64,000 nucleotides of DNA from Bacteroidetes bacterium GWF2_33_16 (GTDB lineage: Bacteria; Bacteroidota; Bacteroidia; Bacteroidales; UBA12077). The notes under the pieces are model-generated. The model searched no databases. It was not told the origin of the DNA and worked only from the letters and a program-made list of their open reading frames with translations. A program made the position numbers and the translations under genes. Of this stretch, positions 7,705-13,188 are shown piece by piece; positions within the stretch are counted from its first letter, which is position 1, and the number at the start of each line of letters is the position of its first letter. Where the stretch lies: positions 413,930 to 477,929 of the forward strand of contig MEOE01000013.1 of NCBI GenBank assembly GCA_001768565.1, in the 5' to 3' direction.

Positions 7705-10700
7705 TTATTTGCCATCACAAGGAATTACCACTTTTCGAACTCCAATTGAAACATTTGGCTCGACCATAATACTGGTTCTTCCTGTATGCGATTCGGTTTC
7801 GGTTAATTGAATTCCTGTATTTTCATTAATAACAGATTCGTAACTGAAATGATCTTTATCACAAAAATCAAGAGAATAATCTTCGAAACCATCAAAGGCA
7901 ATTTCCTGATACATTGCATTTGCAGCATTTGCAACAGGTAAAACCTGGTTATAACCAAATACTGCCGATGAGTATCTGCCTAATGCATCTCTGTTTTCGA
8001 GTGCAGAACCGTAAGGGCTAAAAATGGTTACTTCGGAGCTATATACCCATTTCTGGTGATCTGATTTGTTCCAATCCAAACCGCCATTTGCTGTCCAAAA
8101 TGGTACAAAATCCTTATAGATACCATCTTTTCTGATATTAGTATTGTTATTAGCTCTCGATTGGGTTCTATCGGTTAAATAAACATGCGATTTCTGAGCC
8201 TTCCATATTCCTCTTGCTCCAACAATATATGGATTATAGTTCATTCCAGGCTCAAGTCCACATTCTCCACAGAAAACACCTGCCTTATCGGTATACTCTG
8301 TTGCAGATGCATTAAGCACATTGGTAAACTGCAGCTTACTATTTACTATTGGATTCGAAACAGTAGTAATTGATCCAACTGATAGTGCCTGACGATTACT
8401 TCTTCCTGATCTAAGAACCGTAATATCTTGTGGATTAGCATAGTATTCGCCTGCATCGCTTAATAATTTAAGCCCACCTTCAGTATTAACCACCCAGGCT
8501 CTGTCATTTCCAAAAACAACTTCATCACCCTCTACCAATTCGTTACTATTACTGGAGTATGTTACTCCAATATTTTTGTATGCAGGGCCCATTCTATCAT
8601 AAGCCCAATGAGCAGGATAATTAAAAGCAAATAATGGATCATCAAATTGGTTTTTAGTTTCAGTTAGCAAAACTTCTCCAGTTTCTGCATCATAGAGTCG
8701 GTTGTAGGTTGTAACTTCAGAACCATTATCTTTAGCAGTAACCGATTCAAGGATTCCATATCGATTAATAACTTTTGTAGTTACTGCTGATCTATACCTA
8801 ACTTTTTCGTGAGCGTATTTTGGCAGGATAACCGGAACAACAATTGGAAAAATTGCAGCAAGAAATGCATCAAGGTTACCATTAATACCTGTAGTAGTCG
8901 TTTCTGTTACCTGTTCACGCATATCAATAACAAAGTCGTAATCAACACCTACTGTTTCAGTAGTAATCGAGCCGTCCTTTTTGACTACCTGTACATTGTT
9001 GTTTAATTTAGAACCATTGGCTTTATAAGTATATGAAACTTCTGAAACTGAAATATCGCTATTTTCCGGAAATACTTTTTCTGATTTTGGTTTTCCATGC
9101 ATATCATTAAGTTCTATAGCATAACCCTGGCTGGCAGTCATAAAATCGTAGGTCTCTATTTTCAATAGTTTCATTGCCCCACTTGATTTCTTGGGTTCTT
9201 TCTGAGGTGCGGTATAATTTGTTATCGTAGGAAAATCTTTTGAAGTATAGAACTCGTGCTCAATCCTGCCGGTAGCATTTTTTGTGACACCAGCATGTTG
9301 TATATTTCTGACAGTAACTTTACTGTATCCAACTGAAGCACCTGGAAAAAAGGATTCTCCAAAAGGTTCTTCTAAATAAAAATCATCACCCGGAACCAAA
9401 AGGTTCTTTTCTCTGTAGAAAACTGGTTTTTTAAATGGATTTTCATCACCACCAATTATTGGTTCGTAAGCAGCTACCCCACTACTAATCACTTTATTGT
9501 TTAAAGTAACACTATAATTATACTCTTGCCCATATGTAGCTGAGTTATTATTATTAAATCCTGTTAACTCCTTCCATCTGTCATTAAGAGTAATGGTTTT
9601 TACTCGCAATCCTCCACCTTTTTTAACATGGTCGGGATTATAAAGTTTAATCCAGGATTTTCCTGTTTTAAAACTTTTTGATGCCTGGCCGTTTCTTAAG
9701 GTTTCATAAAAACCAACTGCCAGATCAACAATTTGTTTTACTACTGAAGCCATTGCATCAAATACTTCGAGAACACCACCACCAACTTCAGCACCACCAT
9801 ATGCTATTGTAGGCATATGTACCTTTACATAGTTCCATCCAGCTTGTGAAATAGGGTTGGCAAATGGGGCTTTAGGCTTTTCATCATTCATTTCAACCTC
9901 TTTAAGCTTTATATATGCATATTTATCATTAATAAAACCATAATTTGCTTCTACTTCCAAATCAGCTGGTTTAGCATAACCAGAAACAAATTCCCATGCT
10001 TGGTCACCAGTTTCGGCCAAATCCATTAAAAATCTGAAATAGATAAAATCAATTGGCTCATTAGTTTCTTTGGTTAAGAAATCTTCTTTAAATAATTCTG
10101 GATGATTTTCAGGATCGGCTACTTTAGTATATGGATTTGCAAGTTCAACAATTAAATATGAGTTGCTTTTTTTATCACTTCCATATAATTCGGCATCTAC
10201 AATACCACTCTTAACATCTGTAATAGTTGGGGCCGATTGTGAAATTCCCACTACTTTAAACATTTGCATGGCTTTTTTATCCTGAACAAATGCATAATCA
10301 TCTGCTTCGTAATCTACATTTATTTTACCGCCCGATGGTAATTCTATGGATGTCATATTCCATGCTACCGCATTGATATCTGCATAATATCCCTCTACTC
10401 CTGCAGCATAGAAATCGAATCCATAAGGATTATTTGTCAAATCACCTTCCTTTATTTTATTCTGAGGTGTATACGGAAATTCAGCATTGGTTATTGGAGC
10501 CGATTCGGCACATGATTTATTTTTTGTATTTGGTAAATAGCTCCCCCAACGATCATATCCTTTAAGATTATATGTTGGATTGATAGTAGTTACAACATTT
10601 CCATCTTTATTTCTTAGTTCAGCATAATTAAATATATAGGGATTTAGTTTACCTCGTTTCGATTTTTGATATGTAAAATAAACCTTTTTAAGAGTAAGTT

Positions 10701-13188: not shown

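Follow-up and report, generated by a model that had tools for sequence, protein, structure and literature searches.

The 64,000-nt stretch of the Bacteroidetes bacterium GWF2_33_16 genome analysed here (hereafter the window, by which the whole stretch is meant) carries a gene for a protein of 1827 aa, which we call BIG. The mature protein begins with a motif like that of toxin complex B subunits (TcB) and continues with a run of strands like those of an outer-membrane barrel, and the question that the locus raises is what such a protein is and what it may do for the cell. We report that BIG is a member of a large family of Bacteroidota proteins conserved along their entire length, that its gene lies in a conserved operon, that the greater part of the protein has the fold class of Rhs/TcB shells, and that residues 126-328 have barrel-like features. 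From these observations we infer membrane insertion, a periplasmic topology, a partnership with a giant protein encoded downstream and some form of translocation; BIG may thus be a TcB-like cocoon in the periplasm that has, fused to its exit element, an outer-membrane barrel of its own and that works with the downstream giant secreted protein, a reading to which we give a probability of roughly 0.45.

Shell fold and N-terminal motif of BIG

BIG is encoded by a single open reading frame (ORF) on the minus strand, with the extent and length given in an earlier, sequence-only reading of the window, and all the strings quoted in that reading (LTGGPSQPE, YNIPL, INLSYHSG, GLGWNI, VINRN, LPDDF, GVNLGLSYNNYTGYGFEMGLEPSL and GMNIGIGYNSRAGLSTINIGYSL) are present in the protein, which divides as follows:

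7705-13188, minus strand: full ORF of BIG, 1827 aa and stop codon; member of an unnamed Bacteroidota family
13087-13188, minus strand: residues 1-34, Sec-type signal peptide, read from the sequence
12814-13086, minus strand: residues 35-125, very conserved motif like the plug/constriction at the N-terminus of TcB, SpvB and Rhs proteins (hidden Markov model comparison with filters off; hhalign)
12205-12813, minus strand: residues 126-328, 12 long amphipathic antiparallel strands, predicted outer-membrane-type beta-barrel (AlphaFold2 DSSP, Foldseek, hydrophobicity, turns and loops)
11419-12204, minus strand: residues 329-590, conserved middle region, modelled with mixed confidence and without an assigned fold (conservation, AlphaFold2)
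7708-11418, minus strand: residues 591-1827, Rhs/TcB-type beta-sheet shell (AlphaFold2, Foldseek)
9619-10611, minus strand: residues 860-1190, alpha/beta insertion domain of ~330 aa in the shell, with a helical bundle at residues 1112-1166 (DSSP, high model confidence); fold not assigned
8761-8946, minus strand: residues 1415-1476, beta hairpin of 30+30 residues with a hydrophobic, Pro-rich tip LDAFLAAIFPIVVPVILP (AlphaFold2; tip of low confidence)

Cleavage of the signal peptide is predicted after a conserved A-x-A, giving LTGGPSQPE as the mature N-terminus, and A34, L35, T36, G38 and P39 are invariant or nearly so among 30 homologues.

When Pfam and NCBIfam were searched with the whole protein and with six pieces of it (the pieces at E<=10) nothing significant was found, the weak exceptions being OMP_b-brl_3 (E 0.07) and the PelB C-terminal barrel (E 0.1), both in the first 200 aa. 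The same databases gave no recurrent family across 26 diverse full-length relatives, and sequence searches of the PDB with the single BIG sequence and with a 30-sequence profile were empty. As stated earlier, neither the sequence nor the Pfam and NCBIfam searches reveal in BIG a Pfam RHS_repeat, an Rhs core, a DPxGL motif, a toxin domain or a C-terminal domain of the type IX secretion system (T9SS), and the sequence features of Rhs/YD polymorphic toxins (PF05593, the Rhs-associated core PxxxxDPxGL and a C-terminal toxin) all went undetected. Several other identities were tried and rejected. Neither PF18962, TIGR04183 and TIGR04131 nor the SprA family model matches BIG, which is then neither T9SS cargo nor SprA, and no match to another characterised T9SS component was seen; a full-length match of that kind is what the sequence-only reading had said would count against it. 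The intimin/invasin-type beta-domain family of inverse autotransporters (type Ve) was undetected in BIG and in the barrel segments of the family, and a TANFOR identity was likewise tested and rejected.

The fold tells more than the sequence. BIG was modelled with AlphaFold2 as two overlapping pieces, residues 27-1175 and 630-1827, each on a 42-sequence alignment; the N-terminal model has a mean predicted local distance difference test score (pLDDT) of 75.3 and a predicted template-modelling score (pTM) of 0.73, and the C-terminal model has values of 75.6 and 0.69 respectively. The 11 best Foldseek matches of the C-terminal model in the PDB are all Rhs/YD shells, headed by TcdB1 (6l7i_F; E 3.1e-9, probability 1.00, 1436 columns) and YenB (5kis_A; E 1.7e-8, probability 1.00), with five Rhs-core chains from type VI secretion systems (T6SS; E 4e-6 to 7e-5), mosquito SGS1, Tse5, teneurin-4 and a teneurin-like protein next in the list; the SpvB N-domain was matched at E 0.11. 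SGS1 is also the top match of the N-terminal model (E 1.3e-4, 1011 columns). On these models the fold class of the shell is well supported, although its detailed geometry is not. The sequence-only reading had described BIG as lacking an RHS cocoon, which the models contradict, since residues ~590-1827 are predicted to form an Rhs/YD-type shell matching those of TcB, YenB and Rhs proteins. It had also seen no run of YD repeats and left more than 1400 residues unassigned, but YD-like motifs do exist (RLYDAETGEVLLTE at residues 1497-1510 and DALGRYSSAVFGYN near the C-terminus), and the stretch is better described as a highly divergent Rhs/TcB-type shell with an alpha/beta insert, a shell that the models indicate is present but diverged beyond Pfam detection. 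The TcB-like nature proposed for BIG is thus borne out, by the fold instead of by a match to the SpvB profile.

The N-terminal motif was compared with SpvB, SepB and one Bacillus TcB, and later with 120 TcBs. A profile of BIG residues 30-135, run in HMMER with the filters off, has its best domain on TcB residues 54-93 in all three of the TcB/SpvB proteins (E, at Z=1, of 0.0012, 0.013 and 0.02). With hhalign, the N-terminal motif is the top match between the full BIG profile and a 3-sequence TcB profile (P=0.046), and against a 21-sequence TcB profile the sole match pairs BIG 64-118 with TcB 44-104 at P=0.01 and 39% identity over 51 columns; there was no N-terminal match to a single SpvB sequence and nothing at all to a single E. 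coli RhsA. PF03534 (SpvB) is undetected at E<=10 on the N-terminal 200 aa of BIG and undetected also in the 26 family members. The resemblance claimed for this region therefore stands as a motif, weak by sequence (P=0.01 at best), and the PF03534 match expected with it was not obtained. The sequence-only reading had staked its case on such a match and formally falls by that measure; we hold the structure comparison to override it because Foldseek gives a probability of 1.00 to both TcdB1 and YenB. Homology of the motif to TcB is position-specific, fits the fold result and is weak by database standards, and we regard it as likely but not proven. In T6SS Rhs proteins this N-terminal element is the 'cork', and in TcB the same element is the constriction at the cocoon exit that the toxin is threaded through, beside the TcA-docking beta-propeller gate (Günther et al. 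2022, PMC8765631). We note that residues 35-57 (nt ~13018-13086, minus strand), the mature N-terminus LTGGPSQPEVQSFEPVGTSEMVD, rank with the best-conserved stretches of the family but have a pLDDT of <50, a pattern in the model that is typical of a segment folding only upon partner binding or shell insertion.

TcB subunits (TcdB1/TcdB2, YenB and SepB, with the Pfam architecture SpvB, FG-GAP propeller and TcdB_toxin_midN/midC) are the best structural match of the shell, and BIG resembles them also in having a plug/constriction-like motif at the equivalent N-terminal position, in carrying no toxin domain of its own, and in being encoded, in most genomes, upstream of an Rhs-core/C-terminal-toxin gene. 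Unlike them, it has a Sec signal peptide, a 12-strand outer-membrane-like barrel after the motif and an extra alpha/beta insert of ~330 aa in the predicted structure; the FG-GAP propeller (PF13517) and TcdB_toxin_midN/midC (PF12256/PF12255), which all true TcBs carry, are undetected in BIG by Pfam; and it is found in Bacteroidota only, with no TcA gene and with accessory genes of its own (an OmpH-like gene, a lipoprotein gene and the genes c2, c3, c5 and c6 described below). The shell fold is shared too with T6SS Rhs effectors (Pseudomonas protegens RhsA, the S. bongori and Advenella Rhs cores, and Tse5) and with teneurin and SGS1 (Foldseek E 4e-6 to 3e-3), as is, by eye, the cork-like N-terminal motif D-f-x-(L/I)P(L/G)...P...L...Y.S....G.(L)G.GW, but BIG differs from these proteins in having no PAAR/VgrG linkage, Rhs core, aspartyl autoprotease, encapsulated C-terminal toxin or detectable PF05593. 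By sequence-defined tests of membership BIG is neither a TcB nor an Rhs protein, yet in the models it shares their fold.

The barrel-like segment

The segment that follows the motif is rich in Gly (13.7%) and Ser (14.2%) by comparison with the shell (7.8% and 6.8%) and has few charged residues. In seven of its strands one face has a family-averaged Kyte-Doolittle (KD) value of +1.6 to +2.3 and the other of -1.2 to -1.8, so that the faces differ by 3.0-3.9 KD units, compared with ~1.3 on average in the shell strands. In the 48-sequence alignment, conserved tight turns (YNNYxGxG, SSxxG and NSRxG), located on the side of the segment where its N-terminus lies, alternate with loops whose lengths differ by 0-30, ~10 and 0-45 residues, an alternation that, read from the alignment, appears to be the classic pattern of periplasmic turns and surface loops in outer-membrane proteins. 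After SGS1, the next Foldseek matches of the N-terminal model were outer-membrane barrels that aligned with a piece of ~200 residues: KdgM (probability 0.98), the designed barrel TMB10 (0.96), PgaA (0.91) and the TamA barrel (0.7-0.8). No significant Pfam or NCBIfam family was found for 48 barrel segments, among whose 21 weak one-off Pfam matches six are to outer-membrane barrel families. BIG thus has a signal peptide, an even number of strands of at least 8, dyad amphipathicity, and short turns alternating with long loops, as outer-membrane barrels do, and the earlier suggestion that residues ~130-320 look like outer-membrane beta strands is upheld by the modelled 12 amphipathic strands and their fold matches. 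Since 12 strands would put both barrel ends in the periplasm, the plug motif and the shell would lie on the same side.

Among known barrels, those of 10-16 strands (KdgM/NanC, OmpG, the beta-domains of autotransporters and inverse autotransporters, PgaA and TamA) come closest, with amphipathic strands, strand ends rich in aromatic residues, short conserved turns alternating with variable loops, Foldseek probabilities of up to 0.98, and, in the case of BIG, an adjacent gene for a Skp-like chaperone. Unlike them, the predicted BIG barrel is internal to the chain, preceded by ~90 residues and followed by ~1,500, and no Pfam outer-membrane family matches it significantly.

A rival explanation bears directly on this segment: BIG could be a TcB-like shell that is soluble or attached at the periphery, whether in the periplasm or released, in which residues 126-328 are a cap or the first turns of the shell, closing the cocoon as the TcB beta-propeller or the teneurin FN-plug does, with the hydrophobic face packed on the shell or on a partner. 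The known Rhs shells are all closed at the N-terminus by a domain particular to their family (PMC8765631), a curved beta-meander can locally resemble a barrel, and the model confidence of the segment is moderate and its superpositions on barrels are of high root-mean-square deviation (rmsd). Against this, a composition rich in Gly, Ser and Asn and poor in charges, a uniformly hydrophobic face, and variable loops with tight turns are what outer-membrane proteins typically show, the neighbourhood includes a linked Skp-like gene, and Foldseek finds outer-membrane barrels for the segment and not Rhs sheets; we therefore think a soluble shell unlikely.

The BIG family and its operon

Full-length relatives of BIG number more than 4,568 at 90% clustering, all of about 1,800-2,400 aa, and those that are named are all 'hypothetical' except for one 'PKD domain-containing protein'. 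Searching with a profile of residues 27-360 yields 6,697 clusters at 50% identity, of which 2,571 have E<=1e-30, with the module always N-terminal, and conservation spans the entire length of BIG, with hundreds of invariant positions. BIG relatives occur in at least 565 loci of GTDB species representatives, in at least 565 species, and the family is restricted to Bacteroidota, its carriers including Flavobacterium, Tenacibaculum, Mesonia, Chitinophaga, Longitalea, Agriterribacter, Fluviicola, Sporocytophaga, Saprospiraceae and Cytophagales. Some contigs of metagenome-assembled genomes with a Bacteroidota-type operon are labelled Akkermansia, Hydrocarboniphaga or Burkholderiales (loci L025, L028/L063 and L072); these are probably binning or labelling errors and not true occurrences outside Bacteroidota.

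Neighbouring genes were clustered in 78 BIG loci, giving the clusters c1 to c7 and a conserved order of c6, c3, an OmpH-like gene (c4), the c1 lipoprotein, BIG, a gene for a protein of ~150 aa, c5, c2 and the giant c7. The c1 lipoprotein gene is directly upstream of BIG in 66/78 loci, c4 is present in 44/78, and c6 (~750 aa), c3, c5 and c2 (~240 aa) are found in 23, 54, 43 and 60 loci respectively. A tblastn search with the N-terminal 900 aa of c7 places a DUF6443/Rhs-type c7 gene downstream, on the same strand, in 65/78 loci, and since only 64/78 extend at least 4 kb beyond BIG, c7 is present in essentially every locus with room for it. The c7 proteins inspected all have signal peptides, DUF6443 and obvious YD repeats; the Rhs-associated core (TIGR03696) was detected in the two long ones of the four tested, one of which also has RHS_repeat and a C-terminal Tox-HNH-HHH nuclease. 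The order of BIG and then c7 is that of TcB and then TcC. Weak matches of c5 are to CBM, PKD and RHS-repeat families, and PDB profile searches with c1, c2, c6 and the c7 N-terminus gave nothing significant.

Two length classes are seen in the family, of about 1,800-1,900 aa and about 2,100-2,400 aa. In loci of the long class (e.g. proteins P0020, P0048, P0085 and P0118; loci L017, L019-L022, L059, L060 and L076) the separate c5 gene is missing and c2 directly follows BIG, so that c5 appears to have been fused to the BIG C-terminus, which suggests a Rosetta-stone link between the two. The C-terminal extension of P0020 carries PKD domains, and four long-class members tested for a T9SS C-terminal domain showed none.

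Upstream, c6 (locus L004:3315-5645 and 22 other loci) is a secreted protein of ~750 aa with a long coiled-coil and a C-terminal half rich in Gly and aromatic residues, whose similarity to a TonB-dependent receptor barrel, the best result of these PDB profile searches (E 0.018), is not significant; c6 may supply the system with a further outer-membrane component. About 12-14 of the 78 loci have instead, directly upstream of BIG and on the same strand, a set of genes like those of type II secretion systems and type IV pili (T2SS/T4P), comprising a prepilin peptidase, a T2SSE ATPase, a secretin, T2SSF and several small unknown proteins (L003:1-6435 and L005:1-6929; also L009, L020, L028, L038, L044, L055, L069 and L074). 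This set seems to replace c6, since no locus has both. Giant proteins with SprB repeats also occur near some BIG loci.

The genes around BIG in the window are tightly packed on its own strand:

14379-16490, minus strand: 703-aa secreted repeat protein, cluster c3, with Ig_7/PKD repeats (Ig_7 'CHU_C-associated', E 2e-12)
13824-14363, minus strand: 179-aa OmpH/Skp-like protein with an N-terminal membrane anchor, cluster c4 (PF03938, E 8.5e-13)
13172-13831, minus strand: 219-aa lipoprotein (lipobox FFSC), cluster c1; its stop overlaps the start of BIG
7229-7669, minus strand: 146-aa secreted protein directly downstream of BIG; proteins of ~140-160 aa hold the same place in many loci
6414-7196, minus strand: family 2 glycosyltransferase (GT2), specific to the window's subclade
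4413-6404, minus strand: tetratricopeptide repeat (TPR)/PMT_2 protein, protein mannosyltransferase-like, specific to the window's subclade
1-4406, minus strand: N-terminal 1468 aa of a giant protein of 3657 aa with Fib_succ_major, Ig and PKD domains; runs off the window

The coding regions of the lipoprotein and BIG overlap by 17 nt (13172-13188) and those of the OmpH-like protein and the lipoprotein by 8 nt (13824-13831), which suggests that the three genes are translationally coupled. The link with a Skp-like gene that the sequence-only reading had proposed is confirmed by the OmpH/Skp-like gene upstream. Its other proposal, an association with T9SS, is only hinted at by the 703-aa protein, which has Ig_7 repeats and whose C-terminal 73 residues match the T9SS type A sorting domain (Por_Secre_tail) at E 0.085, which misses the cutoff. 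This protein contains at least four near-identical repeats of ~85 aa (…GGISYSWSPTIGLNNPNISNPIA(S/N)PT…TTYTV…). There are no tRNA genes and the GC content is uniform at 30-34%, and so there is no sign of recent transfer; a scan for sigma-70 promoters and terminators was uninformative, as expected for Bacteroidota. The cluster c6 is absent from the window.

The giant protein of the window occupies the position held in most loci by the DUF6443/Rhs toxin. The closest relatives of the window's BIG (52-71% identity) share this alternative arrangement, in which BIG is followed by a protein of ~140-150 aa, sometimes a GT2, a TPR/PMT_2 protein and then a giant of 2,586-3,657 aa with PKD, Ig, Fib_succ_major or Kelch domains; the set of GT2 and PMT_2/TPR genes is conserved in the subclade (L090; L091 without GT2). 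The 3,331 residues of the giant that were examined showed neither an RHS domain nor a toxin domain. Judged from the sequences, the GT2 and PMT_2/TPR genes look like a glycosylation module for a giant surface protein.

This arrangement favours another rival to the toxin-related role, namely that BIG is an outer-membrane platform for assembling or anchoring giant surface proteins in general (adhesins, SprB-like proteins and others rich in PKD and Ig domains) and not specifically a toxin exporter, its shell being a chaperoning cage or an attachment base that in some lineages may work with a T2SS/T4P-like machine. The adhesin-like giant of the subclade (Fib_succ_major, Ig, PKD or Kelch) with its glycosylation-type genes fits such a role, as do the nearby SprB-repeat giants and the T2SSE, secretin and T2SSF genes found directly upstream in the loci listed above. 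We nevertheless consider it unlikely, because the partner is DUF6443/Rhs-type in 65/78 loci, in some cases with bona fide toxin domains, and no role in adhesin assembly is known for bacterial Rhs shells.

What BIG may do

In the reading preferred here, BIG would be a Sec-exported, Bacteroidota-specific relative of the TcB/Rhs 'cocoon' proteins in which the plug/constriction element leads directly into a 12-stranded outer-membrane barrel, where TcB has in that role a beta-propeller docking on TcA. The dedicated Skp/OmpH-like chaperone and the BAM machinery would insert the barrel into the outer membrane with both its ends facing the periplasm, and the plug motif and the shell of ~1,250 residues would assemble as a cocoon hanging beneath it, perhaps with the help of the co-encoded lipoprotein. 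In most genomes the cocoon would partner with the downstream Sec-exported DUF6443/Rhs-core toxin, which would act like TcC, and would either thread the C-terminal domain of the toxin out through the constriction and the barrel or display the toxin on the cell surface; for the subclade of the window, that partner would be the giant adhesin-like protein, probably glycosylated. It is as an export or anchoring device, then, that we infer BIG to act.

A number of observations weigh against this proposal. No sequence method reached significance for BIG with TcB, SpvB or RHS, the Foldseek TM-scores are low (0.16-0.20), and because the protein was modelled in two pieces the geometry of barrel and shell relative to each other is not seen. 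The pLDDT of the barrel-like segment is ~50-85, its superposition on KdgM is poor (rmsd 10.9 Å, with 10-26 Å across the barrel matches), and a barrel of 12 strands has a narrow pore. BIG has no Rhs core, aspartyl protease or beta-propeller, and no TcA-like gene was seen in any BIG locus; c5, c2 and c7 are absent from the window, where no Rhs toxin lies beside BIG; and the C-terminal PKD domains of some long members (P0020) are commoner in surface proteins than in periplasmic ones.

The hairpin at residues 1415-1476 raises a further possibility. The consensus of its tip, IxPxxIPxxLP, is conserved in the family and uniformly hydrophobic, and on the model the tip could be a membrane-dipping or partner-binding element. 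Were BIG a released, self-contained toxin translocator that inserts into the membrane of a target cell, combining TcA-like and TcB-like functions in one chain, this hairpin and the amphipathic strands would be its pre-pore elements; Tc toxins are indeed released and act on target membranes, and Foldseek weakly matches the hairpin to the pore stems of aerolysin, lysenin, CDTb and PA. Those matches have probabilities of only 0.02-0.28, however, the tip is Pro-rich and not dyad-amphipathic, a single-chain barrel of 12 strands is like an outer-membrane protein and not like a pore-forming toxin, and the signal peptide and the lipoprotein and Skp-like partners point to the envelope of the producer itself, all of which makes such a translocator quite improbable. 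That the TcB resemblance is convergent or an artefact of modelling, BIG being an unrelated large beta-rich envelope protein, is an idea favoured by the lack of significant sequence similarity to any Rhs/TcB family, by the low TM-scores and by the 42 sequences only in the AlphaFold2 alignments, but it is hardly credible when two independent models each retrieve Rhs shells first, with 11 consecutive top matches of one fold class, when BIG has YD-like motifs and its partners clear YD repeats, when the best profile-profile match falls exactly on the TcB N-terminal motif, and when Rhs-core toxin genes lie downstream in the order of TcB and then TcC.

We found no paper describing the BIG family, the nearest being those on the TANFOR toxins of Bacteroidetes (Jana et al. 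2020, PMC7073777) and on the 'TcdB/TcaC pathway', in which a recognisable SpvB domain and an integrin-like propeller are fused to the toxin (Zhang et al. 2012, PMC3482391). BIG has neither that domain nor that propeller. Its linked giants resemble TANFOR toxins in their Sec signals, variable C-terminal toxin domains and PKD/SprB/T9SS-type neighbours, but differ from that class in carrying DUF6443 and an Rhs core. The route by which giant Sec-dependent polymorphic toxins of Bacteroidota pass the outer membrane is recognised as an open problem (PMC7073777), and a family that has no Pfam or NCBIfam model and is annotated merely as 'hypothetical' adjoins such toxins in almost every locus examined. 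BIG is thus a concrete and testable candidate for the missing export step, with culturable carriers in Chitinophaga japonensis DSM 13484, Mesonia oceanica, Tenacibaculum sp. MAR_2009_124, Flavobacterium sp. DGU11 and Longitalea luteola. That BIG, the Skp-like chaperone, the lipoprotein, c2, c3, c5 and c6 together form a previously unrecognised outer-membrane machine of Bacteroidota for the export and delivery of DUF6443/Rhs toxins is possible, and we put it forward as a tentative and still rather doubtful proposal. In such a machine a Tc-type cocoon in the periplasm, with an outer-membrane pore of its own, would be loaded with the Sec-exported toxins and would carry their toxin domains across the outer membrane; polymorphic toxins would then have a secretion route that is new, analogous in cis to the step in which TcB docks on TcA. 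A covalent union of a Tc/Rhs cocoon and an outer-membrane barrel would, if true, be a new architecture in the Rhs-shell superfamily, and it would extend Tc-like encapsulation devices beyond insect and animal pathogens.

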